Positions 1,496-50,324 of a stretch of 64,000 bases of DNA are shown piece after piece. A model generated the notes under the pieces. It had not been told where the DNA came from, ran no database searches, and was given only the letters and a program-made list of their open reading frames with translations. The position numbers were made by a program, and so were the translations under genes. How positions within the stretch are numbered: position 1 is the first letter of the stretch; every line of letters starts with the position of its first letter. This DNA is from a virus (lineage: Duplodnaviria > Caudoviricetes): positions 21,736-85,735 of IMG/VR virus record IMGVR_UViG_3300021256_000085; one strand, written 5' to 3'.

Positions 1496-4400
1496 ATGAT
1501 TTCTATAAGACAATATTTAACTGAAGGTAGAAGACCTAAACAAGAAGCGCAAAAGGTTATTGAAGGTACTAGTATTCTTGACAAAATAATGAATAATGAA
1601 CAAGATAATGTCAAAGAATTTGTTCAAGAATTCATAAGACCTAATGGACCAACTATATATGCATTCACAACAGATAAAGTAGATTCAGCAGTTAAGGTTG
1701 GATATACAGATCAACACCCAGAGAAGCGTATTGAGCAATGGAGAGAAATATATGGTAAAGAGGAAGGTGAAGTTGTTCCTTTAGGATATTGGAGCTCAGA
1801 AGAATTTGATAAAGCCGGAGAACGTGTATTCTTTTGGGATCATGCTATTCATAAGAAATTACAAGGCAAAGGATATAAGCAATTATCACGAGATGAGTTT
1901 ATGAATACTTTAACAGAAAAAGGTAAGCAACTTGTAGATATTCATTATTCTCGTGAATTCTTTTCTAAATATAAGAAATTATTACAAGGACAATTAAGTG
2001 ATGAAGATAAAGAAGAATTATCTGCTCAATTATTAGAAGACTTAATTAATCAAATGAAGCTTAATATCAAAAATGGAACTGCAGATTTTAAGTTATATAA
2101 GTTTGATGAAGAAGGTAGAACTTCAGGTAAGCAAGCGGATAAACAATGGGGTTCTCCAGATACTTACCAAAATACTGATTTACAAGAAAATGCTATTAAG
2201 AATGGTGTAGAAGCTATTAAAGAAGGTAAAAAGAATATATTGATGGCTGCTGTAATGAGATTTGGTAAGACTCATGCATCATATGAAATTATTAAAGAAG
2301 CAGGATTGAAAAGAGTTATCGTTTGTTCTGCTAAAGCTGATGTTAGAACTGCATGGAGAGAAGATATTAATCATGTTCATTTCTTTAAAGATTTTATATT
2401 TATAGAAGTACTTGGACCTAACAACTGGGATGTTACTTATTCTAAAGATGGTAAATCATTAGTTACTGAACATGGTATACCAGATATTGAAGCTTTAGAA
2501 AAATCCGGTAAGACTATGATTTATTTCTTTACTTTACATGATTTAGGTGGCTCTGTAAAAGAATTGAAAGCAAAGCATAAGGGATTATTTGACAAGAATT
2601 TTGATATGATGATTGTTGATGAAACCCATTATGGATCTCATGCTAATACTTTTGGACAAGTTACCGGATTAGGAAGAAAGAAAATTGAAGACGATGATGA
2701 AGATAATGCACAATTAGAAGAAGAGCAAAAATTAGCTGAAGAATCAAAGAAAGTTATTGAATCATTGAATGTAAAATATGATAGAGTTCTTCAAGTTTCT
2801 GGAACACCTTATTATATATTAGCTTCAAATGAAATGATTGATAAGGATGCCGCAATTATTTCTAAAGTTTCTTATACAGATATGCTAAATGCTCGTGATA
2901 AATGGGAAAAAGAACATAAAGGAGAAGATGAAAGTAATTCACCATATTTTGGAATACCTACATTACATAAGATTGGCTTACGATTAAATAAGGAATGCCG
3001 TAAAATTATGGAAGAAGCAGGATATACTGATTCTATGACAGAATTATTCAAAGTCAATGGACAGAAATTTGTAAATGAGAAAGCCATACGAGGATTGATA
3101 AAAGGTATATTTGGAGATGGAAAGAGTAGTTCATTAGCATTCTTGAAGAATAAAGATGTGGATGGCAATAAAGTTTGTAAGCATACAATAATGGTATTAC
3201 CTCGTGTTAAAGCATGCCGAGCTATGAAAGAGTTGTTGAATTCCATGATAGATACAAATGAACGTAAAGTATTTTGTATAGTAAACAATTGGGGTGGCAT
3301 TACTGATGTGAAAGATGTAGATGACTTGAATAACCAATTAGAGAAATTAGATAGTGAAGGAAAGAAAAGTATTATATTGACTGTCAATCGATTTATGACT
3401 GGTGTATCTATGCCTTGTGTAGATAGTATGATATATTTAAAGAATGCAAGTTCACCACAAGAATATGACCAGAATATATTTAGATTATGTACAAGAAGAG
3501 TAAAGAAAGTAAAGGATCCAGATAATGAAAGCAGATCTAAGAAAGTCAATATGAAAGATAACGTATATTTGATTGACTTCAATATGAGTAATATGTTCAA
3601 TATGGTTGCAAATAGTGCTCGTATGAAAGCTGCTGCTGAAGGTAATCCAACTACAAAACGAATCAAAGAATTTATGGAAGATGATCTTAAAGCTGTTCCA
3701 ATATTTGCTGAAGATAAAGCTAGTTCAGAAATACTTGGAAAGATGCATAAGATAACTTCCAAAGATATGATGGAACTATATACAAGATATAACAAGAACA
3801 AGAGTATATCTGATATAGTGAATGATGAAATTGATTTGTTTGGAGAATTATTCAAAGATAAAGATTTCCAAGATATAATAGTTGGTATAAATATAGATGG
3901 TGACAAGAGTAAGATAACTGTTGGAGATAAAGATGAAAATGATGGAGAAACTATTGACAATATACCAACAAGCAAAATTGACAAGAAACTAAAATCATTA
4001 CAAGACAAGATTAAAGATTCTCGCATAACTGATAAAGATAAGAAAGAATTTGAGAGATTAACTAAAGAGAAATTCAAAGCTATTACTAAGAACTTATTAT
4101 ATTGTGACTTATGCTTAGATGAACCTTGTTTTGATATTGAGGGAATTATTGAGAAAGCTAAAAAGGATTCAGAATTCAAGAAAATGCTTCATGAGTTTAA
4201 GATTGAATTGTCGGATATAGAGAAAGTATATAAAGTGATGGACACTAATTATAAACAAGCTTACAATTCTTTATTGACTAGAATGGCATTACTTGCACAA
4301 GACAAGAGCAAAGAAGGATATGATAAGTTTAGTAAAGCTCTTGAAGGATTAGGTAGACTTGGTCAATCTGAAGTTGTAACACCGCCTGAAATTGTTGAGA

Positions 4401-5605
4401 AAATGATTAACAAACTTGATGATTCAGAATATCGAAAAGCAAAGAGCATATTACTGGTGAATGAGAAACAAGCAGAGTTTGCAATGGGATTAGTTAAGAA
4501 ATTCGGTAAAGACATATTAAAGAAAGTTAAGATAGTTGCAAGTTCTGAAATTGGTAAACACTTAACTAAAAAAATGTTGAAAAGCGTTATGAATTCTGAC
4601 TATATTAATAATATTATACTAAATATAGAAGACACAGATGGCAATGGCTATTATGATGTCAAAGATTTTTTACATATGAAGAATGAAGAAATTTTGAAAG
4701 AGAATGATGGAAAGAAATTTGATATAATTTTGTCTAACCCGCCCTATTCTAATACATTACATTTACAATTTTTAGAAAAGTATTGCGAAATTGCAAAAAA
4801 TATTATATCAATACAACCATGTGAATTTATTACAAGAACACATTTAAAGCCAACATATAAAAAACAAAAAGAAAAATATAAAAATTCTATTGGTAAACAT
4901 TTATATGATTTAGAAGTATTAAAAAAGAACCCATTTGATGCCGGCATAGACACAAATATTGGTATATATGTTCTTAATGAAACAGGAGGATTTAATTATG
5001 ATAATTTTTATAAAGAATATGATAAACATTATTTAAATATTGAATCTAAATTTAATACAGGAATAACATTTAATGAAAAATTAGAAAAATATGATAATCA
5101 AAAATATTTTGTTCCTATAAGAACAGATGGTATATATGAAAGATGGTGGACATTACAATTAATTAATTATTTAGATATTATTGTTGATGGAAAAGTTTAT
5201 TCTGGTGATTATAAAGGATTAACAATTTCGGAAGCAAGAAAAAAGAATCCGCATGAAAACCCTAGAAATTCTGATAGAACAACAATGGGTGTTTCATTTA
5301 ATTCATTAGAAGAGGCAATCAATTGTAGAGATTCTTTAAAAACAGAAGCATATATGTTTATAATTGCTTTATTTAAAACTACACGAAAGAATCCATTAAA
5401 TAAAATACCTTTCTTAAATTATAAAAATCATTTATCTAATAATGATATATTTGATTTATTTGATATTAATAATGATTTAAGAAAAGATATTATAAAAGAA
5501 ATGCAACCATTTATGAGTAAATCATCAATGAATGGTTCAGAAATAGGAAAAACATTAATAAATATTCAAAAAAAATATTTAGAAGAATTAAATAAAAATA
5601 ATTGA
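1496..5605 (+). CDS. restriction-modification-like fusion: GIY-YIG-type nuclease + SF2 helicase/ATPase + N6-adenine MTase catalytic region + target-recognition domain; capsid-targeting-like leader
   Basis: TIYAF...VKVGYT (GIY-YIG/T5orf172-like); MAAVMRFGKT Walker A; DETHYG; SGTPY; EVVTPPEIVEKM; NPPY at 4736-4747; N-terminus MISIRQYLTE. Confidence 0.8.
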   Translation: MISIRQYLTEGRRPKQEAQKVIEGTSILDKIMNNEQDNVKEFVQEFIRPNGPTIYAFTTDKVDSAVKVGYTDQHPEKRIEQWREIYGKEEGEVVPLGYWSSEEFDKAGERVFFWDHAIHKKLQGKGYKQLSRDEFMNTLTEKGKQLVDIHYSREFFSKYKKLLQGQLSDEDKEELSAQLLEDLINQMKLNIKNGTADFKLYKFDEEGRTSGKQADKQWGSPDTYQNTDLQENAIKNGVEAIKEGKKNILMAAVMRFGKTHASYEIIKEAGLKRVIVCSAKADVRTAWREDINHVHFFKDFIFIEVLGPNNWDVTYSKDGKSLVTEHGIPDIEALEKSGKTMIYFFTLHDLGGSVKELKAKHKGLFDKNFDMMIVDETHYGSHANTFGQVTGLGRKKIEDDDEDNAQLEEEQKLAEESKKVIESLNVKYDRVLQVSGTPYYILASNEMIDKDAAIISKVSYTDMLNARDKWEKEHKGEDESNSPYFGIPTLHKIGLRLNKECRKIMEEAGYTDSMTELFKVNGQKFVNEKAIRGLIKGIFGDGKSSSLAFLKNKDVDGNKVCKHTIMVLPRVKACRAMKELLNSMIDTNERKVFCIVNNWGGITDVKDVDDLNNQLEKLDSEGKKSIILTVNRFMTGVSMPCVDSMIYLKNASSPQEYDQNIFRLCTRRVKKVKDPDNESRSKKVNMKDNVYLIDFNMSNMFNMVANSARMKAAAEGNPTTKRIKEFMEDDLKAVPIFAEDKASSEILGKMHKITSKDMMELYTRYNKNKSISDIVNDEIDLFGELFKDKDFQDIIVGINIDGDKSKITVGDKDENDGETIDNIPTSKIDKKLKSLQDKIKDSRITDKDKKEFERLTKEKFKAITKNLLYCDLCLDEPCFDIEGIIEKAKKDSEFKKMLHEFKIELSDIEKVYKVMDTNYKQAYNSLLTRMALLAQDKSKEGYDKFSKALEGLGRLGQSEVVTPPEIVEKMINKLDDSEYRKAKSILLVNEKQAEFAMGLVKKFGKDILKKVKIVASSEIGKHLTKKMLKSVMNSDYINNIILNIEDTDGNGYYDVKDFLHMKNEEILKENDGKKFDIILSNPPYSNTLHLQFLEKYCEIAKNIISIQPCEFITRTHLKPTYKKQKEKYKNSIGKHLYDLEVLKKNPFDAGIDTNIGIYVLNETGGFNYDNFYKEYDKHYLNIESKFNTGITFNEKLEKYDNQKYFVPIRTDGIYERWWTLQLINYLDIIVDGKVYSGDYKGLTISEARKKNPHENPRNSDRTTMGVSFNSLEEAINCRDSLKTEAYMFIIALFKTTRKNPLNKIPFLNYKNHLSNNDIFDLFDINNDLRKDIIKEMQPFMSKSSMNGSEIGKTLINIQKKYLEELNKNN

Positions 5606-13005: not shown

Positions 13006-13953
13006 ATGAAAGATATTAAAGAATATTTATCAAGAATAACAAAACAGAATTATACAGAAAAAGATCATAGCTATATAAAAGAAGATTATGTAGGAAATAA
13101 TGAAGTTATATGTCAATTAGATAATGGAACAATATTAAATGATTTTGATGAGTTTATTAAAGAAAATCATATATCCAATATTGACAAGAATACTTATTAC
13201 TTTTTCTTAGATTCTATATATGATAATCATTTATATAAATATATAGACAATCCATATACATATTCAGATTATCAAAAAGGTGTGTATATGTTTGAAAATA
13301 TACTTCATTCGTATAGTGCAAAGAATCTATACAGTAAGTTATTAGATATATTTGGTGAAGATATCATAGATGTAAATTTTGTTAATCCTAAAAAGGAAAT
13401 AACTCAATTTAAAATTATTATAAAAGATTCATCAATATTATATAAAATACTTAATGATGATAGATTTTGGTCTACATTAAGATTATATAATTATTATGAT
13501 AAAATTATAAATGATACTGAAAATGAAGTTAGTATTATTTTAGATCCATATAAACCACAAGATATAACCAATAAAATATATAATGAATTTGATGGTATTA
13601 TTTATCATGTAACTTCACAAGAAATATACATAAATAATATCAAAGATAAAGCAATTAAACCAAAATGGAAAATACCAAATGAATACTCAAAAATCTTTAG
13701 AGATGGACGAATATTCTTTATAACAAACAATGATGAAAATAAAATACAAAATCAACTTAAGTCTATTGCAAACTTAAAAAATATACCAGATCCGATTGTA
13801 CTTAAAGTTAATTTAAAAGAATATCGAAATAAGTTAAGATTTAGAATAGATTCTTCTGCATTTAGTTATGATGCTTATTTTACAGAAGAACCAATACCAG
13901 ATTTTTGTATAACCTGTCTTGATTTAAATACATGGAAAGAATATACTTTTTAA
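13006..13953 (+). CDS. putative ADP-ribosyltransferase-fold (Tpt1/DUF952-like) protein with leader MKDIKEYL
   Basis: IIYHVT...NIKDKAIKPK, RIFFIT, IVLKVNL, FRID...AYFTEEPIP. Confidence 0.5.
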   Translation: MKDIKEYLSRITKQNYTEKDHSYIKEDYVGNNEVICQLDNGTILNDFDEFIKENHISNIDKNTYYFFLDSIYDNHLYKYIDNPYTYSDYQKGVYMFENILHSYSAKNLYSKLLDIFGEDIIDVNFVNPKKEITQFKIIIKDSSILYKILNDDRFWSTLRLYNYYDKIINDTENEVSIILDPYKPQDITNKIYNEFDGIIYHVTSQEIYINNIKDKAIKPKWKIPNEYSKIFRDGRIFFITNNDENKIQNQLKSIANLKNIPDPIVLKVNLKEYRNKLRFRIDSSAFSYDAYFTEEPIPDFCITCLDLNTWKEYTF

Positions 13954-14028: not shown

Positions 14029-14502
14029 TTATTTTTCAAATATAGATTTTATATACTTATAAACAACTTCTGCAAAATCTTTACGTGATTTTATTTTATC
14101 ATTTCCAAACCATATAATATTATTTTCTGATCCATGGAATCCGCCATTTGTATAATAGTCAGTGATTTCCTTTGTTGGTTCTTCTGGAATTAATGTACGA
14201 GATTTAGAATCCATAGGAAGCCATCCAATTTGGAAATGACGATTTTTTCCATAAGGTCTAGTTATAGTTGCTTTATATATTCGTACATTATAATTCTTTT
14301 TACAGAAATTGACAATATAATAAGCACCCATATTTTCTCCCTCACCTGGGTACCACGCTTTAGCAAACTCTTCTACGAATTTATCTGGTTCATAAGTATA
14401 TTGTTTATTATCTTCATACTTCAAACCTGTCTTATACAAGTTATCTGAAGTTATTCTTAGTTTCTCTTGAGATTCTAAAATATATTGCTTAATATCTTTC
14501 AT
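14029..14502 (-). CDS. hypothetical protein with leader MKDIKQYILE
   Basis: ORF track; TTATATAAATA upstream on the minus strand. Confidence 0.65.
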   Translation of the reverse strand: MKDIKQYILESQEKLRITSDNLYKTGLKYEDNKQYTYEPDKFVEEFAKAWYPGEGENMGAYYIVNFCKKNYNVRIYKATITRPYGKNRHFQIGWLPMDSKSRTLIPEEPTKEITDYYTNGGFHGSENNIIWFGNDKIKSRKDFAEVVYKYIKSIFEK

Positions 14503-16311: not shown

Positions 16312-16351
16312 AAATATTATTTTTATATAAAATATACTTACTTTAATATTT

Positions 16352-16633
16352 ATGAAAGAACTTAATAATTTTATAAATGAAAAATTGATAGTTGGTAAAA
16401 ATATCATTCATACAGTAAAATCTAAATACACTCTTAAAGATCTTCAAGAAGCATTAAATTATTATGAAGAATATTATGATGAATTTCCTGAAGAAAAAGG
16501 TGAATATCCTAATTGGGGAGAACTTGATAATTTTTTCAGTAATGAAAAATGGTGTGAAGCTTTGATGAATGGAGAAGATGATTCCCTTGTAAAAATTGTG
16601 GATGCAATATTTGATATATTATATAAAAAATAA
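16352..16633 (+). CDS. small acidic protein with extended leader MKELNNFINE-KLIVGKNIIH
   Basis: Shared leader; TATTTTTATATA at 16318. Confidence 0.7.
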   Translation: MKELNNFINEKLIVGKNIIHTVKSKYTLKDLQEALNYYEEYYDEFPEEKGEYPNWGELDNFFSNEKWCEALMNGEDDSLVKIVDAIFDILYKK

Positions 16634-16653: not shown

Positions 16654-16983
16654 ATGAAACAATTACAAGAATATATTATGAATGAAAAATTAATAATTGG
16701 TAAAAATATCATTCATAAAAAAGATAAACGATTTCAGAATGATGATCCTTGGACTGAAGATTGTTTATCAAAACTTCAAAATAAATATGATTCTAAATAT
16801 GTAGTTGTATTATCAAGATTAGGTGCTATTGCATTTTATAAAGGTCGTACTCAATCTTTAAAAAATTGTATTTGTATTCTTTGGGGAATTGATAAAAATG
16901 GAGAATTAATAGGAGATTGGGGACCTAATGAAAATTTAAAATCAACATTAGGAAAAGAAATACTTGAGACATTATTAAATTAA
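16654..16983 (+). CDS. hypothetical protein with extended leader MKQLQEYIMNE-KLIIGKNIIHK
   Basis: Shared leader. Confidence 0.7.
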   Translation: MKQLQEYIMNEKLIIGKNIIHKKDKRFQNDDPWTEDCLSKLQNKYDSKYVVVLSRLGAIAFYKGRTQSLKNCICILWGIDKNGELIGDWGPNENLKSTLGKEILETLLN

Positions 16984-17016
16984 ACTTCTAAAATTTGATT
17001 TTAGAAGTTTTTTTTT
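16982..17016 (+). terminator. intrinsic terminator
   Basis: AAACTTCTAAAA / TTTTAGAAGTTT stem plus T-run. Confidence 0.75.
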
Positions 17017-17053
17017 ATTTTTATATATATAATATTATTTATTAAACATATAT

Positions 17054-20000
17054 ATGAAATCATTATCTAATTATTCAAAAACACAATTAAACTATTTTAA
17101 TTCATTTAATAGTACTAATATATATAACCAACAAATTGCTTTAAATGAATCTCAATTAATATTATCACATGGATCTAATATTGATTCAGTTTTGTATAAG
17201 TTGAATAAATGTACTTCAAGATATAATGAGAATTTATTTTTTGAAAATCAAGATGACGTATTATTTACTATAGATGAGCAATATGCAGCTCGTGATATAT
17301 TATTGTTGACTTGTAAATTATATGTTGAATCATTATGTGAAGAATATAATATTGAAGTTCCAATTTTAGAGTCTACTGAAGATACAGTTAAAAATCTTAA
17401 AGGATTTATCAATAAAGTTGGTCAATATGCAAAAGAAAAGGGTGAAGAATTTAAGGATGAGGTAAATAAAATTGGTGATAGAATTAAAGCTGTTAAAGAA
17501 TTCATTCAACAAATTACTTCTAAAGCAATTAAGAGTGCTAAAGAATTAGCTGAGAAATTCTTAGATTTAATGATTTCATTAAAGAGTCGTTTATCAGATA
17601 TATTATCTAAATTAGGTGCTAAGATTGATGAAATCCAAGAAGAATTTAAAGAAAGTATTCTTAATGTTATCAATAATAAAGCTGATAGACCTAAAGAAAA
17701 TATTTATGAGAATTTACAAAATGCTTTGAAATCCGGTCGTCAATTAGATGAAGATTTAATTTTAGAGTTTTCATTGTTTGGTAAAAAGAAATCTAAGGAG
17801 GATGGTGATAATAAAGATGAAAAGTCTAAAGGTAGAAATGAATATGAAAAATCACTTGATCCAGATAAGAAAAAAGGAATTAAATCTAAAGGCAAGACAA
17901 TCATTGTTGGTATATTGAAGCAAATTGCTATATCAACAACTATATTAGTTTTATTACCTTCATTAATAGGATGTGTTTGGGGTCCAGCTGCCGCTATGAT
18001 TGCCGCAACCATTGCAAAAGCAGCTATGACTGGATATGGTTTCTATAGACTTTGTAAAAACATTTATTTGACTATTAAATCTTCAGAGTGGAAAGAAAAA
18101 TCCAAGTGGGCTAAATTAGGTCATGTGATTATTTGGATGTTGTCATTTGCTTTATTAGCATGGGGAGCATCAAAAATGAAAAATGATTTTGTGAAGATTT
18201 GGGATGCATTCTCTAAAGGAAACTTAAAAACTTTGGTACCAGATGAAATGGTCCAAGGTGGTATGAAAATCATCAATAATATTTATAAAGCTTTGACTGG
18301 TAAAGATACTCCTGGATTTGAAGAATTACAAAAAATAACTACTGAAGGTATCACTACATGGGAAAGCAAAGAAGAAGTCAAAGGAAAAACTAATGATAAT
18401 TTCACTTCTAAAGAACTTAAAAACTTAGGTGATACAAATGATTTCAAGAATATTGAAAACAACTTAGGTAAAGAAGTTACTGATGAATTGAAGAAAGCAA
18501 CTGAAGCTACTTTAAAATCTTCAAAGAGTGTACAAGATGCTTTCACCAATGCGGTTGATCCTTCTAAACTTCCATCAGATACACATATTGTATTTGTAGA
18601 TGGTAATACCGCAGCTAAAATGGTCAGAACTGGGTTGATTGGTAATACTAATGGTGCTGAGGTTGCTGTTAACCAAATTACAAATACTTCATTACAAGCA
18701 GCTACAAATGGCCAAGCTGGTACAATGTTCATGGTTGCTATAAAAGGTTCTAAAGATGCCGCTACAGATATTCTTTCACAAGCTTCATCAGCTGCTGGTA
18801 AGCATGGTGTTGATTTCTTAGGTAAAATGATTAGCGGTACGGCTACAGAAACAGTTGTAACACAAGTTCCACATACAGTTGCCGCTACTGCCGGTGGTTT
18901 TGCTCCTATTGTTGGGTTACCTATTATTACAAAGAAAAAAGTCGATAAAGGATTTTTACTTAGATTAGGTTCTTCTCGTTCTAAAAATAAAGTTTATATT
19001 ATTAGAGAAAATGATATCAAAGGTATGGCTTTTAAAGATATTGAATCTAAATATGGATCTAATAATACATCTGTATTTGAAGAGATGAAGAAGATTATCA
19101 ATAAAAATTACAAGACTTTAGAAAAGGCTAAAGAAAATTTAGAGAAAAAATCTAATCCAAGTAAATCTGAGAAAAAATTAATTGAAGGTATTACTAAGCA
19201 ATTAGAGAAAATGAAAGATGGAATATCTGAATATGAATGTTTAGTATTTTTTTCAAAAAAAGATGTTGAAAGTCAAAATACAGAGAATCAAACAAATGAA
19301 GGATTATTAAATAAACTATTTGGTAAAAAAGATAAACCAGAAGTTAAAGAAATTGAATATCAACCTGTAATGTTTATAAATCCTATTTGTATGGCTTGTG
19401 GTGATTTAGCTAATATTACTGAGAAAAAAGGTCCTCGTAAAAATCCAATCTATTTGAAAGGACTTTTTGCAAGTTATGAATTCTTGCCAGGTGAAGAAGG
19501 AATGACTGAGAAAGATATTAATGAAATGCTTCAATCCATTGCATTGGAATCTCTTAAGACAGCTTGGAATATGAGTGCAGATGCCCCATGTACTAAGAAA
19601 GCATTCAAGAAATATGTTGAGAATGAAGAATCTATATTCAAAGATCAACCTCGTGATGATTTTGGTAAACTGACAAATAGTGAAATTACCGAAATATTCA
19701 ATAATCCATCTTCAATCACTAAATATATGGGTGGTAAATATTCTACTAAGAGTACTGTTGAGAAAGAAAACACAGAAAATCAAAAGAAACGTAAAGAGAA
19801 TGCTAAGAAGGAATGGAAAGACAATATTGAGAATAATGATGAAATAAAGAAAATTATTGATGATTCACCTTCATTGAAGAAAAACTTGGTTGATAATGAT
19901 GGTAAAGTAAAAGATGGTGCATTAGATGATTTAAGCGATGCTTTCTTGAGAATGGAGACATCTTATAATAAAGGTAAATCTAAAAAATCTCTTTGGAAAC

Positions 20001-20320
20001 GTATTAAAGATTTCTTTACAGGTGGTGATGATGAAGATAAAGAAAAAAGTAAATATGATCCAGATGAAGTTCAAAAATTAGCATATAAGTTAGCTTCATT
20101 ACATTCTAAAAATTTAAAATCTAAACGTTCATCTGAAGAAGTTAAAGAATCATTGAATATAGAATTAATTGAAGAATTGGATGAGTCAATCAAATACTTT
20201 GATATGAATTTAGAAGATTTGTTATCAGAAGAATTCTATGATTTCTTGAATAATAAAGATATGGTTATTGAATCCTTAGATGATGAAGATGATGAAATAA
20301 TTTTATATGATGAAATTTAA
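17054..20320 (+). CDS. large (1088 aa) probable virion/ejected protein with membrane helices
   Basis: Late-type motif at 17016; hydrophobic helices (ISTTILVLLPSLIGCVWGPAAAMIAA; VIIWMLSFALLAWGA); Ala/Thr/Gly-rich middle; acidic C-terminus. Confidence 0.5.
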   Translation: MKSLSNYSKTQLNYFNSFNSTNIYNQQIALNESQLILSHGSNIDSVLYKLNKCTSRYNENLFFENQDDVLFTIDEQYAARDILLLTCKLYVESLCEEYNIEVPILESTEDTVKNLKGFINKVGQYAKEKGEEFKDEVNKIGDRIKAVKEFIQQITSKAIKSAKELAEKFLDLMISLKSRLSDILSKLGAKIDEIQEEFKESILNVINNKADRPKENIYENLQNALKSGRQLDEDLILEFSLFGKKKSKEDGDNKDEKSKGRNEYEKSLDPDKKKGIKSKGKTIIVGILKQIAISTTILVLLPSLIGCVWGPAAAMIAATIAKAAMTGYGFYRLCKNIYLTIKSSEWKEKSKWAKLGHVIIWMLSFALLAWGASKMKNDFVKIWDAFSKGNLKTLVPDEMVQGGMKIINNIYKALTGKDTPGFEELQKITTEGITTWESKEEVKGKTNDNFTSKELKNLGDTNDFKNIENNLGKEVTDELKKATEATLKSSKSVQDAFTNAVDPSKLPSDTHIVFVDGNTAAKMVRTGLIGNTNGAEVAVNQITNTSLQAATNGQAGTMFMVAIKGSKDAATDILSQASSAAGKHGVDFLGKMISGTATETVVTQVPHTVAATAGGFAPIVGLPIITKKKVDKGFLLRLGSSRSKNKVYIIRENDIKGMAFKDIESKYGSNNTSVFEEMKKIINKNYKTLEKAKENLEKKSNPSKSEKKLIEGITKQLEKMKDGISEYECLVFFSKKDVESQNTENQTNEGLLNKLFGKKDKPEVKEIEYQPVMFINPICMACGDLANITEKKGPRKNPIYLKGLFASYEFLPGEEGMTEKDINEMLQSIALESLKTAWNMSADAPCTKKAFKKYVENEESIFKDQPRDDFGKLTNSEITEIFNNPSSITKYMGGKYSTKSTVEKENTENQKKRKENAKKEWKDNIENNDEIKKIIDDSPSLKKNLVDNDGKVKDGALDDLSDAFLRMETSYNKGKSKKSLWKRIKDFFTGGDDEDKEKSKYDPDEVQKLAYKLASLHSKNLKSKRSSEEVKESLNIELIEELDESIKYFDMNLEDLLSEEFYDFLNNKDMVIESLDDEDDEIILYDEI

Positions 20321-27089: not shown

Positions 27090-27122
27090 AAAATGGAAGG
27101 TTTCAAAACCTTCCATTTTTTA
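27089..27122. terminator. bidirectional terminator between convergent genes
   Basis: AAAAATGGAAGGTT / AACCTTCCATTTTT. Confidence 0.8.
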
Positions 27123-34259: not shown

Positions 34260-37200
34260 ATTCATCAAAATTAAATAATGAATATTGTGAATTATTTTTT
34301 ATAACCTCATCATCAATAATATTATCTGGAATATTCATGACATTACTTAAATGATTAGTATTCTTTTGTTTGTTCATAAATCTAGTATTAGATCCATCTA
34401 ATTCAGAATACTTGTAATAATCAAATGGTTTATTCACTATATTCACAATATCATCTTTAATATCATCTAAAGTTAATTTTTGTGTATGTGGTAATTGATA
34501 ATCATATATGAATCCATTATTATCATCTTCAGTTGGTTTCATATTATTCACCAAATCTTGTAAAAAGAATTCTTTAGTGTTCATATATCCACCAAATATA
34601 TCATCTACATCAATTTTCTTTTCCCAAATCAATGTGAATGGTTCAATATGTATAATTCCTTGTTTAGATTCTTTTTTAATGACAATCACATCAAATAAAT
34701 CTTTAACTAAATCATACATTGAATCTAAATATCCAATATCATCAACCACCACATTCTTTACCACATTACATATCTTTGCTGTATAATTACCAATCCATTG
34801 TTGAATATCCTCTTTATTCAAATATGGATTTTCCTTAGCAAATTTTTGTGCATCAACAATAAATTTATAAATTGGTAAATCTATTCTATTCTTACGACGA
34901 TTATCTTCAATAATTACAAATCTCTTAATTCTTGTCAACTTTGAATAATTAATTCTTCCAGATTTTCGTTCTTGACAATACTTGAATATCTTTACAATAA
35001 TTTCAGGATCATAGAATTTATATAATGTCAAATATATTGGTAGATTCTTTAATACAATCTCTAAATCTTCAGCATATAGATTATTTTCTTCTCGAATTTC
35101 TTTATATTCATCATCAGTAAAAATACTATATGAACCTTTTAATATATCTTTATAAATATCAATATTTGAATCATCAATGTGTTCAAGAAATTTAAATGTC
35201 TTAACAGTATTCTCACAAAAATGATGATTTCTACAATCTTTGATAATTTGTTCAGCTGAATCTTGATCTAATATAATCTCATCCGGATTATCATGAGTTT
35301 TTATATTTATAGTATATCCATAATATTTCAAGCTATTCATCAATACTTGTAATTGTTTTGAATATTCTGAATATCTTTCTTCAAATATTTGTAATTTAAA
35401 AGCTGTCTCATCAATATAATATTTAGCATCATTTTCATCATACTTTATATATTTATTAGTTGATAATAAAGATGATATCAATGGATTATATTTTGATTCT
35501 TCTTCATTACGTTCAATCATATCATTACAAGTTTGAATAAAATCTTTTATTAATAACAAAGTAGAATTATCAAAATCTAAATTCAATCTATTAGTAGTAT
35601 AATATGGTATACGATTATTATTTGAGTCAAACATCTCTAAGAATATCTTGATATATAAATCATTATTACGTACTCGGTTTGCAAATTGCTCTATATCTTG
35701 TGGAATCCATAATTGACTAAAATACACTGTAAAATTATATTTATCACAAATATCAACACCAACAGACAAATAGTTTGAGCACATAATTAAATCATTATTA
35801 CCAATTGACTTATTGACTTCAATATTCACCATTGACTCATTACCATAATTAGATTTCTTGTAATAAAATGACTTTAAAGGTTTCTTATATCCTTTCTTTA
35901 ACAATATATCTGAAAGTACACCAATCAATTGATCATAATATAGATTACCATTATTACATGGATATATGATTTTTTTACCATCTATTATATCATCTGCCAT
36001 ATGTTGACACATAATCACTAACTTTTCATTTTTAGTTTGACACATATGTATCTCAACATCTTTGACACGATGATCTTCTTTAATCACTTTGATATTCTTG
36101 ATTCCAGGAAAAAACAATATTTCACCAGTTGGAGTACCAGTCATCATGATAATCTTTGCGCTATGACAATTAGCTAATCTTTGAATTGTTGGGGACATTA
36201 CATCTCGATATGATGAAGTATATAATAAATGAGATTCATCAATAACAATATATTTAAAGTTAGCTTGGTCAAGTTCCATGATATTCAATCTTGAGAATTT
36301 ATCAATAGTCATAGCCATATTGTTATCACTTAAGATTTCTTCCAAAGTTGGGCGTTTATTACCATAGTAATATAACCAATCTTTAGTTACTTCAGATGCT
36401 TCAACTTTAGCTTTAATAGTAGAAGTGAAAGGTAAAATCAATAATGTCTTTTCTTTTAATGACTTAATCATCTCAGTTTTACCATATCCAGCACCAGCTT
36501 CTAACAAAGTTATATTTTCAAGATTATCTAAGATTTGTGATTTGATATCGGATAAATATTGATTAGATTTCAAATAAAGATATGTCTTGTCAATATTATC
36601 ATTCAATACTTTAATTGGATCAATACTATTATCTATTTGGTCAATCTTTTCTTGTAATTGATTTATCTCATCATTATATACACTATTATTGACTTTGATA
36701 TTAAATCCATGATCTTTATTTAAAGTTTCAACAGCCCATAAAGATATAGGTTTATTATGCAATGCCGCCGTCTTGATGTCTCCTTTTAATTCTTGATATG
36801 GAGTATTTGCACAAATATCTAATATTAATGCTAATGCTTTTTGTTCACCATATAATGCAGTTAATGTATTAGCTATTTGCCAACGTTGAATATGTTTATA
36901 GTGAATTTTCTTATTCTTAGATATATCTCGTTCATCAACATTTAGGATATTTTCTACATCAATTGGTTGGTTGACTCTATCATTTGAGAACCATTCTAGT
37001 TTCTTGAAAATCTCTTTTAACTCAGGATGATATATCCAATTAATTGACTCAACTCCATTATTTAAAGCTGGTTCAAAATTTACATCTAATCTTTGATTGT
37101 TAAAATTTGTGTTAATTAAGATATTATAATCACTACCAATGAAAATACCTTGTTGTGGTTTAGCCATTGCCATATCAATAAAACTAATCACATCCTCATG

Positions 37201-38857: not shown

Positions 38858-39538
38858 ATGAAAAATTTAGATAGTTATATAACTGAGAAACTTGTTATTG
38901 GTAAAAATATCATTCATAAGAAAATTACAGTTTCAACAAGGAATGAGCTTATAACAATATTAGAAGAGCGTTTAAATAAAGATAAAGATGCCAACTTAAA
39001 TGATTTAGATGTTAGCCAAATAACCGATATGTCAGAGTTATTTAATGGTTTAGATCCACATAATATTAAAATTGATCTATGGGATGTCTCAAATGTTAAA
39101 GATATGGATAGTATGTTTTACCGTTGTCTAAATTTTAATTTTGACTTAAGTAAATGGGATATCTCTAATGTTAAAAATATGCATGGTATGTTTTATCTAT
39201 GTAAAAAATTTAATTCTGATTTAAGTCATTGGGATGTATCTAATGTAGATGAAATGGGTAGGATGTTTGAAGGTTGTGAAAATTTCAATTCTGATTTAAG
39301 TAATTGGAATGTTTCAAATGTTGAAAATACATCTCGTATGTTTTATGGATGTAAAAACTTTAATTCAGATTTAAGTAAATGGGATGTGTCTAAAGTTAGA
39401 TATATGAGTAATATGTTTTATCATTGTGAAAAATTCAATTCAGATATAAATCAATGGGATGTATCTAAAGTTAAAATTATGGATAATATGTTTAATGGAT
39501 GTAAATCATTAAATGAACCAAATTGGTGGAGAGAATAA
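38858..39538 (+). CDS. DUF285/BspA-like LRR repeat protein with extended leader MKNLDSYITE-KLVIGKNIIHK
   Basis: About six tandem 25-aa repeats FNSDLSxWDVSNVxxMxxMF, also visible at DNA level (39060-39510). Confidence 0.85.
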   Translation: MKNLDSYITEKLVIGKNIIHKKITVSTRNELITILEERLNKDKDANLNDLDVSQITDMSELFNGLDPHNIKIDLWDVSNVKDMDSMFYRCLNFNFDLSKWDISNVKNMHGMFYLCKKFNSDLSHWDVSNVDEMGRMFEGCENFNSDLSNWNVSNVENTSRMFYGCKNFNSDLSKWDVSKVRYMSNMFYHCEKFNSDINQWDVSKVKIMDNMFNGCKSLNEPNWWRE

Positions 39539-39563
39539 AAATAATTTTGAATTAATCTAAAGA

Positions 39564-39869
39564 ATGAAAACCTTAGATAGTTATATAACTGAGAAACTAG
39601 TTATTGGTAAAAATATTATACATAAAGAAAATAAATCTTGGGATAAACTTATTCAAGATTGGATAGATGAATGGGCAAAAGATGATTTTGAATATCTAAT
39701 GTTATTGATTGATAGATTTTTAGAAGATGATACTTTTGAAGGAGATACTCAAGATGAATATGAACCATTCTTACAATATGAGAAAAATAATAAATTTAAA
39801 GAATATTTCAAAGATAAAATTCTTAAATTTAAATTAGATGTGGAAAATCAAATAAAAAATATGAAATAA
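39564..39869 (+). CDS. acidic protein with extended leader MKTLDSYITE-KLVIGKNIIHK
   Basis: Leader nearly identical at DNA level to 38858. Confidence 0.7.
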   Translation: MKTLDSYITEKLVIGKNIIHKENKSWDKLIQDWIDEWAKDDFEYLMLLIDRFLEDDTFEGDTQDEYEPFLQYEKNNKFKEYFKDKILKFKLDVENQIKNMK

Positions 39870-39877
39870 AATAATAT

Positions 39878-40930
39878 ATGGATAACTTAATTAATTATAT
39901 TAAAGAAGGTTTTATTGATGAGATGCTTGATAAAATTAATAATGAGATAATTACTGAATCTTTAAATGCTAAAGTATTACAGGAATTAGCTAAACAATTA
40001 ATAGATCAAGTAAATCAAGAGAAAAAAGAAAAAGAAAAAGACTCTTATAAAAGTATTTATAATCATACATTCAAAAATGTTTTTGGTGAATCTCACATAG
40101 TTTGGGATAAGATTTCTGATAGTGATATTCAAGAAATTGAACCACAATCATGGGATGTGAAGAAAACTAAGATTGCTAATGAGAAACTTATTAGAAGTGT
40201 TATTAAAGGAGATAAAAATTCTATTATATTTAGTCGTGATCCGGAAACTAAACAATTTGAATATGTGATCTTGACTTGGGGTCAAGTATATACTTTAAAA
40301 CCATTATGGGGTCAAGCCGCTGGTAGAAGACTTGGAAGTGGATATGGAAGACATTTTAAAGATTTAACCCAACGAGAGAAAATTGATTTGTTCCAAAATA
40401 AAATTGTTTATGTTATTGATAAAGTTCAATTTGATTCAACAAAAATTAAAACAGATCGATACAATAATCGACAAGGAATGATTAATTTTGATAAATATTC
40501 ATTATCTAAAATTGCCCAAGACAATAAGGATAGATATAAAAAAATAATATCACAAAATAAAGCTAAAAATGCATCTAATGATCAATTATTAGAAGAAACT
40601 ACTGAAATAATTAATAAAATTACGGAAATTACTGTCAAAGTTGCTAAGAATCCAATTAAATATTTAGATATTTATTATGATGTTCAATCATTATCTAAGT
40701 TAGTTTATGATGAGAAAAAATATGTAGAACCAACTAGATATAATAAAAAAGGATATTATACTGGATTGAATGGATTACTTAGATTAGTTGCTAAATATAT
40801 TGAAGCAGTTAAAGATAGTAAAGCCGGATATTCTTGGGGTACACAACAAATGGATAATACAGTTAAAGAAATCAAAGAAAGAATTCAAAAAGCTAAAGAG
40901 TTAATTGATAAGATTGAAGAACTGATGTAA
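39878..40930 (+). CDS. hypothetical protein with leader-like MDNLINYIKE
   Basis: 350-aa ORF in the neck operon; early IITE/SLNA motif. Confidence 0.6.
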   Translation: MDNLINYIKEGFIDEMLDKINNEIITESLNAKVLQELAKQLIDQVNQEKKEKEKDSYKSIYNHTFKNVFGESHIVWDKISDSDIQEIEPQSWDVKKTKIANEKLIRSVIKGDKNSIIFSRDPETKQFEYVILTWGQVYTLKPLWGQAAGRRLGSGYGRHFKDLTQREKIDLFQNKIVYVIDKVQFDSTKIKTDRYNNRQGMINFDKYSLSKIAQDNKDRYKKIISQNKAKNASNDQLLEETTEIINKITEITVKVAKNPIKYLDIYYDVQSLSKLVYDEKKYVEPTRYNKKGYYTGLNGLLRLVAKYIEAVKDSKAGYSWGTQQMDNTVKEIKERIQKAKELIDKIEELM

Positions 40931-44025: not shown

Positions 44026-44205
44026 ATGAAAACATTTTCCGATATGATTTTTGGTGCATGTGTAATGTGTCTTATATATAATATTATATTTATTTTTCAA
44101 GATAAAGCAAATTCAATAACTTATGTTGCATTGCTTTTTCTTGTGATATATTTTATACTTGAAATTTCACGTAGGGTATTTGATAAAGAAAATGAGGATT
44201 ATTAA
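44026..44205 (+). CDS. small 2-TM membrane protein (59 aa)
   Basis: Translated by hand: MKTFSDMIFGACVMCLIYNII... Confidence 0.5.
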   Translation: MKTFSDMIFGACVMCLIYNIIFIFQDKANSITYVALLFLVIYFILEISRRVFDKENEDY

Positions 44206-44219
44206 TTAATCCTCATTTT
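44189..44219. terminator. bidirectional hairpin over convergent stop codons
   Basis: AAAATGAGGATTA / TAATCCTCATTTT. Confidence 0.65.
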
Positions 44220-44390
44220 CTTTTTTAGTTTTTTATATTTTTTGATTTTTTTATCAACAATATCTAATGGTTGTAGAATATCACCAGATCCAACTTCTCC
44301 ATTTATCCCTGGAGGACTTACATTTCCCATTCCGGTAGTATTCATTGGAGTTGCAAATAATTCTTCTAAATAAGTCTTAAGATTTTTCAT
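44202..44390 (-). CDS. small protein with leader MKNLKTYLEE
   Basis: ORF track; shared leader. Confidence 0.6.
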   Translation of the reverse strand: MKNLKTYLEELFATPMNTTGMGNVSPPGINGEVGSGDILQPLDIVDKKIKKYKKLKKKMRIN

Positions 44391-46059
44391 TTGATTTGTT
44401 TTCTTTATGATTTCTTTCTTCAGCAGCTTTTTTAGATTTTTCTATTGCTAATTGGTTGAATTCATATAGAAGACTATCATCTAATATATGTTTTTGTCCT
44501 GGATTAATCAAATATCCCATCTTACTCATTACATCTCGATTAATAAGTACTTTTTGTTTTTTATTACGATTATCTACTAAAGCAAATTCCGCATTTAATA
44601 ATTTACGTGAACCAATTCTTATACATGGAATTTCCACAGTTACTCTTTCTTCAACATTTTGACCAACTATAGCATTTGATTGTCCAACCAATTTAAAAGT
44701 ATATTCTTTTCCTTCTATTGTTGCAAAAACTTTATGACCTTTTTGCTCAACTTTCTCACAACCAATAGTAGATGCTTTAGCACCATTACCGGTATCAAAC
44801 TTAGCTTCAAACTCAACTTCTGATTCATCGGTATCTGATAAAGTAAAATACACATTTTCTAGATATCCAATAGCTTTTGGCTCTAATACTAATTGATTAA
44901 TATCATTAATCTCATTTAATAGTATTTCCATAAAATTATCACCAATCACTTCTGAAATACCATCAGTACCAGGTGAAGCATTATATTCAAGAACTACATT
45001 ATCACCTATCTCTGGATTACTATCATGTACTAAAGGCATAATATCTACAGCACACCATGGCATACGAGATATCTTAGCTACTTTCAAAGCAATCTCTTCT
45101 TGTTCTGGAGTTAATTTAACTGATTCAGCGGTTGCACCTAAAGAAACATTAGAACGGAAATCTCCACTAATCTTCACACGTTTCATAGCAGCTAATATTT
45201 TTTGTTCTGTACGCATAGTCAATACATGCACACGAATATCACCACCATCAGCTTCTTCTTTCTTTTGTAACAATAATTCACGTTCAGGATCTATTGCAAA
45301 TATAGCTTGAAGAATAGAAAGAATAGTTTTTCCGTTCACCATAAATACACCAGTTCCACCATGGCCATCAAGAATTTTAATGACATATTCTTTTTTCTTG
45401 TCAGCATTCTCATCTTCACCTACATCTTTATAAATCAATTTAAGTTTCTTTTGTAATGACTCTTCTCCTTTAGCGATATCATTAGCTGAAAGTAATGTGA
45501 ATTTAGGTTGTGGAATATTATATCTTTCCATCAATACCGCTGAAGTGTATTTATTAGATGCACGTTGAGCAGCTTGTATAGGATTAAGAACAAAAAATCC
45601 CCAATCTTGAAGTTCTTTAATAAGTTCAATACACTCTTCAGAATCTTGGGCACCTAAACGAGTGATTACAATAGTATCAACATTTGATTGAACATCAATA
45701 GTATATTTATTGACATTATCATGAAACTTGATTTTTTTATCTGTAGCTTTGTAATCTATTTCTTCAGCAATAAAAGGATATAGTTTTACTCCTTTACCTT
45801 TAATAGCTTCTTCTAAATTCTTCAATGTTTTGTTAGATTTAGAATCTCTATCATTTGTAAAGAAAATAATATTCTTGAAGAAAAAATCCTTCTCATCATT
45901 TTCATCATTCTCTTCAACAATCAAATTATCTGAATTTTGATTTTCCTTTTCTAGAAGTAACTTATTTTCTTCTTTAAGTTTCTTATTAACTACTTTAAAT
46001 ACTTCAGAAATCACCTTTGGATCTCTATAATCAATATATTCATTTGAAAATTTCTTCAT
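44377..46059 (-). CDS. RimK-family ATP-grasp ligase fused to C-terminal retropepsin-like protease domain
   Basis: ASNKY...IPQPKF; VIKILDGHGGTGV; DIRVHV; GDFRSNVSLGA; AVDI; LEYNASPG; C-terminal AKFDTGNG...VLINRD. Confidence 0.85.
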   Translation of the reverse strand: MKKFSNEYIDYRDPKVISEVFKVVNKKLKEENKLLLEKENQNSDNLIVEENDENDEKDFFFKNIIFFTNDRDSKSNKTLKNLEEAIKGKGVKLYPFIAEEIDYKATDKKIKFHDNVNKYTIDVQSNVDTIVITRLGAQDSEECIELIKELQDWGFFVLNPIQAAQRASNKYTSAVLMERYNIPQPKFTLLSANDIAKGEESLQKKLKLIYKDVGEDENADKKKEYVIKILDGHGGTGVFMVNGKTILSILQAIFAIDPERELLLQKKEEADGGDIRVHVLTMRTEQKILAAMKRVKISGDFRSNVSLGATAESVKLTPEQEEIALKVAKISRMPWCAVDIMPLVHDSNPEIGDNVVLEYNASPGTDGISEVIGDNFMEILLNEINDINQLVLEPKAIGYLENVYFTLSDTDESEVEFEAKFDTGNGAKASTIGCEKVEQKGHKVFATIEGKEYTFKLVGQSNAIVGQNVEERVTVEIPCIRIGSRKLLNAEFALVDNRNKKQKVLINRDVMSKMGYLINPGQKHILDDSLLYEFNQLAIEKSKKAAEERNHKENKSNEKS

Positions 46060-48035: not shown

Positions 48036-48794
48036 TTAGTTATCTTCCCATGTTTCGGACATATGTTTTTCACATTCTTTTTCTCTTTCTTTGTCTATTT
48101 CTAATGCCCCATATTTATTTTTTCGAACATCTGTATAAAAATCCTTTTCTAAATCTGATAGATAATCTTTTTGTTTAACAGGACCTAATTTATAGAATTT
48201 TTTCAAATTATTTTTAAATTCTTCAACTGGTAATAATTTTTTAGTAGCATTTGGTTTGACGACATAAACCATAGCCATTTTATATATTATTAATTTAGAT
48301 TTTCTTTCAACAGGAACCCGATTGATATATGCATTTTCAACATCATGTGTACCAGTTACATTCCAAGAATTATATTTTGTGAATAATCCTTTATCATCAG
48401 AAAGAATTAATGGCATATATATAGAGGGCATTCTTTTCATCAAAGTATCATATTTTGGTATTTTAGAACTCTGAAATGTTAATACAATTGCTGGATAATT
48501 TGAATTATATAGATATTTTTTATTAGTATAATTACCCTTATATTCACTTGATCCAATTTCATTTTCTGTGAAAAATGTTTTTGCATCCATCACTTCAATT
48601 TTAACTACATCCTTTTTAAGTGGACTTGATAAAAATGCTTCAATAATTGCATTCATATATATTTTAGATAATGCTTTGCAATTAGTGTGATTAATTATTT
48701 CAATACCTTCTTGATAAATTGGATTTTGTGATTTATGAATAATATTCTTACCTAAAACAAGTTTTTCATAAATATATGTATCTAATTTTTTCAT
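48036..48794 (-). CDS. hypothetical protein with extended leader MKKLDTYIYE-KLVLGKNIIHK
   Basis: Shared leader. Confidence 0.7.
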   Translation of the reverse strand: MKKLDTYIYEKLVLGKNIIHKSQNPIYQEGIEIINHTNCKALSKIYMNAIIEAFLSSPLKKDVVKIEVMDAKTFFTENEIGSSEYKGNYTNKKYLYNSNYPAIVLTFQSSKIPKYDTLMKRMPSIYMPLILSDDKGLFTKYNSWNVTGTHDVENAYINRVPVERKSKLIIYKMAMVYVVKPNATKKLLPVEEFKNNLKKFYKLGPVKQKDYLSDLEKDFYTDVRKNKYGALEIDKEREKECEKHMSETWEDN

Positions 48795-48797: not shown

Positions 48798-50324
48798 TTA
48801 ATATTTGTTTTTAATTCTATCAGCTTGTAATTTCATTTGTTCTTTAATCATAGACTTAGCTAACTCTTCATCATCTATTGATTCAAAAAGCATAGCACAA
48901 ATTATGAAAGTACGAATTGATACTTCAATATCCATTTTAGATTTAATCAACTCTAAAAGATAATCATATGCTTTTAATTTATTTTTGATAGATAGTTTTT
49001 CTGGATTTAAGTCTGGTAATAATCCTTTAATTATTTTTAATACATCTTCTGTTGTAAAATGAATATCTTGTATATAAGATCTTCCACGTAAAGCGGTATC
49101 TAATGATCCTGCATTATAATTAGTAATAATGATAACTGAACCATTATAATAGAATCTTTTTGGTAATTCATTTCCATCATCATCAGTTATTTTACCAGCA
49201 ACACCATATGAGATAAGTCTTCCTTCAGGTTCACTAGTTGAATCTAATGCACCTTTCAAGATATTAATACAATCTTCTGGAGCTTTTGGTCCTACTAATG
49301 AATCTGCATCATCAATCACTAATATATCTCCTTTATCTTTATAATCATATAGAGCTAAATATAATCTTCGTGGGGTACATTTACCTTTAATTGTAAATAA
49401 GTTTTGACCTTCTATATAATCATTTTCTTTTAATAATTTCTTAACTTTGAATGTTTTACCAACACCTGGGGCACCACATAATATAACTGATGGATTAATT
49501 CCTTTAATTACCATCTTCACATATCCTTCCATTTTCTTGAAAACCATTTCTGGATCTTCAGATTCTTCTTGTAGTTTTGTCTCAGCAGTTTTCTCTGATT
49601 TAGTTTTTGAAACGGTGACTAATTTAGATTTAGATAATTCTAATTCAATTTCTTTGACAGATGATGCTCCACCTTTAATAGCTTTAAGAATCTCATTAAA
49701 TTCTTTACTTATATTTTGAAATCTTTCTTGATCTTCTTTAGAATTATTTCTATTCATCAATGCTTGTTGAAGTTCCTCGGCTTTTTTGTGCTTATAATTA
49801 TCTACTTCATTCTCATAAATATGATATCGTAAAGAACCAACATAGAATCTTGATTCTTTAATATCAGATTTTTTAAATATACTACGACCTATTTCAATCG
49901 CTTCCTTTTCTGATAATGAATAATTTTTAGTATTGACAATGGTCCAAATAATTGGTAAAAAATATACTAATGAACTATCTAAGGTATTGATGGTCAATTT
50001 AGACTTTGAACTTCCATTGAATAAGATGTCCATATTATTAAAGAAATCAATAGAATGTGGATTGACACTATCAGATGATTTATTCCAATTGATTTGGAAT
50101 ACTTGACCGGTTTTATCTTTAGGTGAAATTACTAAAAATTGTTTTGTAATAAATTCTTCTTTAGATGTTTTAGTAGTAACATATCCAACTAATGGAACTA
50201 ATAAGTCATCAATATGCTTAGATAAGATTTTATCAATCCCATTAATATATTGATCTAAGTTTTTAATAGAAATAGATGATTCATTTATTTGTTTTTGTTT
50301 TTGAATGAAGTCTAAGAATGTCAT
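48798..50324 (-). CDS. AAA+/P-loop ATPase with leader-like N-terminus MTFLDFIQKQKQINE
   Basis: Walker A CGAPGVGKT; Walker B ILVIDDAD; IIITN; ALRGRS. Confidence 0.8.
   Translation of the reverse strand: MTFLDFIQKQKQINESSISIKNLDQYINGIDKILSKHIDDLLVPLVGYVTTKTSKEEFITKQFLVISPKDKTGQVFQINWNKSSDSVNPHSIDFFNNMDILFNGSSKSKLTINTLDSSLVYFLPIIWTIVNTKNYSLSEKEAIEIGRSIFKKSDIKESRFYVGSLRYHIYENEVDNYKHKKAEELQQALMNRNNSKEDQERFQNISKEFNEILKAIKGGASSVKEIELELSKSKLVTVSKTKSEKTAETKLQEESEDPEMVFKKMEGYVKMVIKGINPSVILCGAPGVGKTFKVKKLLKENDYIEGQNLFTIKGKCTPRRLYLALYDYKDKGDILVIDDADSLVGPKAPEDCINILKGALDSTSEPEGRLISYGVAGKITDDDGNELPKRFYYNGSVIIITNYNAGSLDTALRGRSYIQDIHFTTEDVLKIIKGLLPDLNPEKLSIKNKLKAYDYLLELIKSKMDIEVSIRTFIICAMLFESIDDEELAKSMIKEQMKLQADRIKNKY

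Follow-up and report, generated by a model that had tools for sequence, protein, structure and literature searches.

The window analysed here is the 64,000-nucleotide stretch formed by bases 21736–85735 of the 85.7-kb IMG/VR record IMGVR_UViG_3300021256_000085, a phage record (Caudoviricetes) with a GC content of 26.5% that is ~30% complete by CheckV. Simple gene calling over the whole record gave 150 open reading frames (ORFs), and about one gene in ten encodes a protein that starts with a ten-residue leader of consensus M-K-x-[LI]-x-x-[YF]-[IL]-x-E, held in fixed register from Met1. Judged from sequence comparison, this leader is probably a capsid-targeting sequence (CTS) of the T4 type that is removed by the prohead protease. 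Leaders were scored with a position matrix (cut-off, a score of at least 9) that was trained only on two relatives, the IMG/VR genomes G001 (158 kb, 55% complete) and G002 (376 kb, 98% complete), both reached via the gp6-like baseplate protein of the window. About one quarter of the leaders form a second class, class II, in which the leader continues into a genome-specific extension, E-K-L-x-[ILV]-x-[KS]. The leader genes are the following, in window coordinates except for the last.

1496–5605, + strand: 1369-residue protein, leader MISIRQYLTE, score 13.5; matches Pfam ResIII (SF2 helicase) and PHROG methyltransferases.
13006–13953, + strand: 315-residue protein, variant leader MKDIKEYLS with displaced Glu, score 10.3; KptA/Tpt1-like ADP-ribosyltransferase (ART) fold as a lead.
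14029–14502, − strand: 157-residue protein, leader MKDIKQYILE, top score of 30.4; no Pfam or PHROG match.
16352–16633, + strand: 93-residue class II protein, leader followed by EKLIVGKNIIH, score 20.8; exact late motif at 16317–16331, 21 nt upstream.
16654–16983, + strand: 109-residue class II protein, leader MKQLQEYIMNE with one inserted residue, score 14.8.
17054–20320, + strand: 1088-residue borderline member, MKSLSNYSKTQ without Glu10, score 9.6; exact late motif at 17015–17029.
27120–27599, − strand: 159-residue protein, leader MKDIKDFIYE, score 26.1; last gene of the late-motif operon starting at 33738.
27602–27877, − strand: 91-residue protein, leader MKQINEYINQSVNE with Glu at position 14, score 21.5; same late-motif operon starting at 33738.
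28600–29484, − strand: 294-residue protein, leader MKIFSQYIFE, score 20.2; ParB/Srx-like body.
38858–39538, + strand: 226-residue class II protein, leader MKNLDSYITE, score 19.8; DUF285 repeats (Pfam, E 8e-66).
39564–39869, + strand: 101-residue class II protein, leader MKTLDSYITE, score 20.5.
39878–40930, + strand: 350-residue protein, leader MDNLINYIKE, score 16.1; no family match.
44202–44390, − strand: 62-residue mini-protein, leader MKNLKTYLEE, score 14.1; late-motif operon starting at 46059.
48036–48794, − strand: 252-residue class II protein, leader MKKLDTYIYE, score 17.9; closes the baseplate operon, in which the gp25-like, gp6-like and AAA genes come before it.
Record positions 20892–21527: an additional member outside the sites listed previously, 843 bases upstream of the window.

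Eleven ORFs match the strict pattern ^M..[LIVFM]..[YF][LIV].E, compared with an expectation of 0.07 (residues 2–25 shuffled) to 0.8 (column permutation), and none of 516 internal Met sites does; all 11 carry [ILV]8 and Glu10, and in three further leaders the Glu is displaced. By the matrix, 15 of the 150 ORFs score at least 9, against a mean of 0.27 (maximum 3) for shuffled N-termini, and neither the internal Met sites (0/516) nor spurious ORFs (0/408) reach the cut-off. The control genomes gave 3/277 ORFs for T4 and 4/650 for the Prevotella phage Lak-C1, which at 25.8% GC is equally AT-rich. G002 has 29 strict leaders and 45 by the matrix among its 637 ORFs, and G001 has 35/212. An artefact of composition is rejected, the shuffles, the internal Met sites, the spurious ORFs and the AT-rich Lak-C1 control all speaking against it.

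A first-pass annotation of this DNA had proposed such a family of N-terminal leaders and had suggested running a profile of the motif against shuffled controls, which is what the matrix comparison provides; with the N-termini re-read at every coordinate that it listed, the family is confirmed and its membership revised. The entry at 11078 is just a 21-residue ORF with a sequence other than that quoted, the entry at 12625 scores −2.0, and a looser match at 47832 on the minus strand scores −6.5; none of the three is retained. Two others are kept as borderline cases, i.e., the 1088-residue protein at 17054, previously a looser match, and the 315-residue protein at 13006, whose family preserves MKxLxDY[IL] and lacks Glu10 throughout, with a Glu at positions 13–18.

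The matrix recovers known capsid-targeted proteins from T4, a genome on which it was not trained. Among 277 T4 ORFs, gp61.1 ranks first, ipII and ipIII second and third, a 427-residue ORF after gene 23, which we take to be gp24, fourth, and ipI eighth. These five score 3.0–17.1, the 95th percentile of T4 ORFs being 0.6, and the chance that four chosen T4 ORFs would all fall within the top 8 of 277 is ~3e-7. The likeness to the T4 CTS that had been claimed for the leaders is thus upheld for ipII, ipIII, gp24 and ipI, and it extends to individual residues, the T4 sequence (MKTYQEFIAE) sharing length, register, Lys2, hydrophobic residue 4, aromatic residue 7, Ile/Leu8 and Glu10 with the leaders described here. 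In T4, the internal proteins, Alt and gp24 carry CTS propeptides of 10–20 residues that gp21 removes after Glu (Mullaney & Black 1996, as reviewed in PMC5694885 and PMC3012670). The residue that follows the Glu is small (S, G, A or T) in 52/84 leaders with Glu10 and Lys in 15/84.

Conservation of the leader is observed at the protein level. Across relatives with capsid-protein identity down to 48%, positions 4, 7, 8 and 10 are kept while positions 3, 5, 6 and 9 drift. The codons at the fixed positions match genome-wide usage, Leu and Ile codons alternate at position 4, and no conserved DNA motif was found at −30 to −1 of the leader genes. One could imagine that the shared start acts as a signal in the mRNA or for translation initiation, in an AT-rich phage without Shine-Dalgarno sites, with a Shine-Dalgarno-like core in only 5/150 genes of the record (144/277 in T4), other start signals conceivable and ATG AAA a common start; however, it is amino-acid classes (Leu/Ile, Tyr/Phe) that are conserved and not bases, and the leader is absent from 90% of genes and from the equally AT-rich Lak-C1, which makes this a very remote prospect.

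The bodies behind the leader are largely unrelated. When the first 24 residues were removed from 95 tagged proteins of the three genomes, the remainders formed 76 BLAST clusters, of which 65 were singletons. Clear homologues of the record's tagged proteins in the relatives are also tagged, the sole exception being a weak match of the 350-residue protein, and 9/15 tagged proteins are without a homologue in G001 or G002. Five class II genes encode the leader plus EKLxxGKNIIH with differing synonymous sites and differing upstream DNA, by which a nucleotide-level element or recent gene conversion is ruled out. A related proposal sees in the shared N-terminus a remnant of common descent, or a joint at which gene cassettes recombine and are shuffled, with no present role in sorting. 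It draws on the class II extensions, which are near-identical within a genome and different between genomes in a manner resembling concerted evolution, and on the DUF285 proteins, which are true paralogues; it is nevertheless improbable in view of the differing synonymous sites and unrelated upstream DNA, the 65 singletons among 76 body clusters, and the selective retention of positions 4, 7, 8 and 10.

A CTS of the T4 type would call for a prohead protease, and a candidate is present in the relatives. G002 encodes a Peptidase_S77 protein (E 8e-13; in PHROGs phrog_207, head maturation protease, 1e-43) that is 28% identical to T4 gp21, retains the catalytic His (GELEHP) and Ser (SSRGAG), and is adjoined by genes for a gp23-like major capsid protein, sheath and tube. 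In 17 related contigs, the capsid protein begins with a conserved stretch of 41 residues that ends ...YAAIHEIHE/S, where the slash marks a junction of the form [IM]-x-E/[SA], followed by a variable Gly/Ala/Pro linker and then a conserved arm. At the matching place T4 gp23 has LTE/A, and by analogy we infer that the capsid protein of the clade is cut at this junction. A phmmer search with the G002 capsid protein against PDB sequences returned nothing. In its C-terminal half the G002 protease contains nine [YFW][LIV]xE sites (WVVEEF repeats), the highest density of all 637 ORFs (p 3.6e-6), which, being tandem repeats, are not independent events. The gene lies at 212552–214165 (L023:17552–19165) and encodes 537 residues, the acidic coiled-coil C-terminal half comprising ~seven tandem WVVEEFAPEVQN repeats; this half may be a fused scaffold that is self-digested.

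Lak-C1 (MK250029.1) offers a comparison in which the junction differs. It carries an S77 protease, its capsid junction reads KLNE/D and its protease N-terminus TLNE/A, and its orthologue of the 1369-residue protein begins with a 20-residue peptide ending SLNE/D. Near Lak-C1 N-termini, [LI]NE[SADG] occurs 15 times versus 4.1 expected (p 3e-5) and [YF][LI]xE is not enriched, whereas near G002 N-termini [YF][LI]xE occurs 60 times versus 25 expected. Leader ending and capsid junction thus shift together between the clade and Lak-C1, as cleavage by a single protease predicts, the co-variation being based on two lineages plus T4 only. Lak-C1 also has a recurring N-terminal peptide, ...KL[IL]E[SN]LFDD[ID]DD, e.g., at 2690–3736 (+), 34333–35541 (−), 151442–152827 (−) and 515490–516248 (−), and this peptide may take the place of the leader in that lineage.

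The genes that neighbour the last tagged gene of the window bear on a further explanation, and are as follows.

48798–50324, − strand: 508-residue AAA ATPase with a possible degenerate leader, score −15.3; Pfam AAA, phrog_1250.
50328–52004, − strand: gp6-like baseplate wedge gene (phrog_219, E 7e-21), a context gene in the structural and late operon.
52010–52360, − strand: gp25-like gene (weak GPW_gp25 match), a context gene in the same structural and late operon.

The AAA ATPase gene has the gp6-like baseplate gene on one side and a tagged gene on the other. It had been put forward as a looser match, which does not hold for the protein encoded here; its orthologues, however, begin MYTFLDFIQE in G001 and MNTFLNFLE in G002. 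With several tagged genes standing in the baseplate operon beside this ATPase, and with housekeeping-type enzymes among the tagged proteins, the leader might instead dock the proteins to a different common partner, e.g., a chaperone or unfoldase such as an AAA ATPase, a site of tail or baseplate assembly, a compartment for replication, or a system for timed degradation. Iyer et al. speculate that AAA+ (BCS1-like) translocases move folded proteins into the heads of jumbo phages (PMC7824862), a proposal that fits such a partner and would modify the capsid model rather than replace it. We consider a partner other than the prohead unlikely, since the matrix specifically recovers the capsid-targeted proteins of T4, the leader ends in the capsid-junction motif and co-varies with that junction in Lak-C1, and the relatives possess a T4-type head module.

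The genomic position of the leader genes is in agreement with a late function. A late-type promoter motif, defined as TTATTTTTAT[AT]TA[AT]A, matches 15 times with at most one mismatch compared with 3.5 expected, a count reached by 0/100 shuffles, and has these exact copies.

54716–54730, − strand: exact late-type promoter motif TTATTTTTATATATA, heading the baseplate operon.
16317, 17015, 33761(−), 46089(−) and 48012(−): further exact copies of the late-type motif.

The six exact copies sit 21–30 nt upstream of gene starts, and exact copies head the baseplate operon, the operon of a 1414-residue protein (with three tagged genes), the operon that ends in the mini-protein gene, and the genes at 16352 and 17054; a copy with one mismatch, at 1454–1468, precedes the gene of the 1369-residue protein. 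A similar motif lies ahead of the protease, capsid, sheath and tube genes of G002. As the first-pass annotation had stated, most leader genes belong to late-motif or structural operons (11/15 in operons headed by the late-type motif), and the left arm, which looks early and has 62 genes, contains none (p 2e-4). In the relatives, tagged genes are enriched approximately fourfold in late-motif operons (p 2e-4 for G002 and 1e-3 for G001). That a radical-SAM modifying enzyme recognises the leader as its tag is barely credible; a radical-SAM-like gene is present in the window (20591–21532), but the leader genes are dispersed and not gathered at it, and the leader differs from a Ser-rich tag of the FVTNSSS type, which none of the 150 ORFs of the record has.

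Under the capsid-targeting reading, the tagged proteins would be made late in infection, and the leader, as a short amphipathic helix, would attach them to the prohead's scaffolding core. The gp21-family prohead protease would then cut after the Glu of [IL]-x-E, and the mature proteins would be kept inside the head alongside the DNA and probably be delivered to the host together with it. Several observations weigh against this reading. Capsid, portal, protease and terminase genes are lacking in the window, and the ~30%-complete record as a whole has no protease, capsid, portal or other head gene; the link to protease and capsid runs through the relatives, whose gp6-like protein is only 49–51% identical to that of the window. 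The lack of independence among the repeat sites of the G002 protease reduces their weight. Four tagged genes are without a late-type motif, a clear late motif is lacking for the leader genes at 13006, 14502 (−) and 38858–39878, and a homologue of T4 gp55 was sought in G002 and G001 and not found. Class II leaders have Lys after the Glu, in contrast to Ala or Ser at the T4 sites read here. Finally, the NDK, Nudix, ferritin-like, HAD, P-loop kinase and GNAT enzymes that are tagged in the relatives are not obvious capsid cargo.

The cargo itself is heterogeneous. Pfam and PHROGs returned no family for most bodies, the ESM Atlas gave weak ART and ParB leads only, and looking up the clusters yielded no names. 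Of the database entries, those from Prevotella Lak phages come closest to the 1369-residue protein, at 37% identity, and the G002 orthologue of the 157-residue protein is 80% identical and retains the leader. The AlphaFold2 (AF2) model of the 315-residue protein (pLDDT 83.5) gives KptA/Tpt1 as best Foldseek matches, which are weak (E 5e-3, probability 0.95); such a protein recalls T4 Alt, a packaged ADP-ribosyltransferase. For the 294-residue protein (AF2 pLDDT 95.5) the best Foldseek matches, likewise weak (E 7e-3), are ParB-N, Noc and sulfiredoxin, and the domain belongs to a family of 698 representative clusters with an invariant PTQNEI...DGHHRW; among 106 diverse single-domain ParB-like relatives only 18 have the leader, the rest beginning with other leader-like peptides or none. 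In both AF2 models the leader is a short separate helix followed by a floppy linker, the helix spanning residues 4–11 (pLDDT ~67) in the 294-residue protein. Because the Foldseek E-values of 5e-3 to 7e-3 are weak, the ART and ParB/Srx labels are leads and not family memberships.

In the relatives, eight G001 paralogues of the 226-residue DUF285 protein bear the class II leader, and the Pfam tally over 81 tagged proteins comprises DUF285 (9), NDK, Nudix, ferritin-like, HAD, P-loop kinase, nucleotidyltransferase, GNAT and AAA. Three enzymes of G002, an NDK-like protein (169352–169762, +), a P-loop kinase (120311–120814, −) and an HAD hydrolase (184795–185439, +), have the leader as an N-terminal add-on; these ORFs were matched to the Pfam tally by eye, from their N-terminal motifs. 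The first-pass annotation had spoken of a large and diverse injected arsenal. Diversity is borne out by 15 tagged ORFs with mostly unrelated bodies, but the word arsenal exceeds the evidence, since housekeeping-type enzymes (NDK, Nudix, ferritin-like) are tagged in the relatives and the cargo is accordingly not only defence-related, a mild argument against a pure arsenal. Its cargo labels survive at the level of leads for helicase-methyltransferase, ART-like, ParB-like and DUF285-repeat proteins, and the AAA ATPase drops out for want of a scoring leader in this phage.

With T4 the system shares unrelated cargo bodies and, in the relatives, a gp21-family protease and a capsid-protein propeptide ending in a like motif. 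It differs in the jumbo genomes, the probable Bacteroidota host and the share of tagged ORFs, 10% (35–45 per related genome) versus a handful, and also in cargo of up to 1369 residues that includes enzymes and in a second, longer leader class, all known here from sequence. One study (PMC3012670) describes the T-even internal proteins as diverse, defence-type and sharing only the CTS; fast turnover of cargo under a conserved leader is a common feature, with the 9/15 proteins lacking homologues, whereas the T-even genes occupy one or two loci and the leader genes here are scattered over many operons in a far more distant lineage. In phiKZ, 201phi2-1 and SPN3US, a gp21 homologue cleaves head and ejection proteins at [SAG]-x-E (PMC5694885). 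These giants resemble the present clade as jumbo phages with many head proteins and with cleavage after Glu, predicted in the clade, by a related protease; however, their propeptides are mostly longer than 100 residues without a common short leader, in contrast to the T4-like ten residues ending [IL]-x-E. The 250-kDa DarB protein of P1 has an N-terminal head-packaging signal of <30 residues (PMC9024508), and the 1369-residue helicase-methyltransferase would be an architectural analogue of this methyltransferase-helicase type of enzyme; no sequence similarity was found, the Dar proteins are without a consensus leader, and no cleavage of their signal is described.

The CTS principle is already in print for T-even phages, and what is new here is the unusually large tagged set and the second leader class. 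Full-text searches found no paper on such leaders beyond the T-even, phiKZ-like and P1 phages, and none describing them in T4-like jumbo phages of Bacteroidota. Should the leader function as it does in T4, the set of proteins that an uncultured rumen jumbo phage packages, and probably injects, could be deduced from its genome, with 15 candidates in the present record and 35–45 per related genome, and the principle would reach beyond T-even phages to jumbo phages of Bacteroidota that are T4-like but distant. It would also provide a list of candidates for host takeover or anti-defence in the first minutes of infection, among them the helicase-methyltransferase, the KptA-like ART-fold protein, the ParB/Srx-like protein and many proteins without a family. 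The joint shift of leader ending and capsid junction between the clade and Lak-C1 offers, in addition, a way to infer the specificity of a prohead protease from sequence.

The 62-residue mini-protein has an architecture of its own, in which the leader is followed by a copy of the N-arm motifs of the capsid protein and a Lys-rich tail. Local alignment with the N-arm of the G002 capsid protein gives z = 7.6, a score reached by 0/500 shuffles, and the G002 orthologue (44193–44366, −) copies the two capsid N-arm motifs of the clade (z 7.9). Outside the clade, T4 gp61.1 (18966–19130, −) copies residues 67–93 of T4 gp23 (z 10.6), and an 80-residue ORF of Lak-C1 (211496–211738, +) matches the arm of its own capsid protein ~8.6 s.d. 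above other small ORFs; a further mini-protein is encoded on L055 (1033–1233, +). The mini-proteins match their own capsid protein and not one another, and all have the Lys-rich tail. Full-text searches found no paper on the function of gp61.1. A bolder reading, which we put forward as possible though doubtful, is that T4-type heads (T4, Lak and the rumen clade) encode an unnoticed mini-protein, composed of the leader, a copy of the mature N-arm of their own capsid protein and a Lys-rich tail, that may anchor the DNA to the inner shell or contribute to building the head, and that the leaders of the clade form a two-class address code by which as much as one tenth of the proteome, including metabolic enzymes, is sent into the capsid. 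In the window, the late-motif operon that ends in the mini-protein gene is headed by a gene for a 560-residue RimK-like ATP-grasp enzyme (44377–46059, −); the neighbour of the mini-protein gene in G002 differs from this ATP-grasp gene.

A megablast comparison of 24 kb of the window with phage records gave zero matches. The host is probably Prevotella or another member of the Bacteroidota; a host of the Bacteroidota type fits because Shine-Dalgarno-like cores are so scarce in the record (5/150). The sole window gene with a full AGGAG Shine-Dalgarno site encodes a TROVE (Ro60-like) and vWA protein (25647–27089, +), and this site together with a locally GC-richer stretch suggests that the gene may have been acquired recently. 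Another motif that resembles a promoter, CTATATTA(T/A)AT, lies 15–35 nt upstream of non-late genes, being found before 1496, 6493, 7101, 11858, 14538/15077 and 20591, and may mark an early or middle promoter class.

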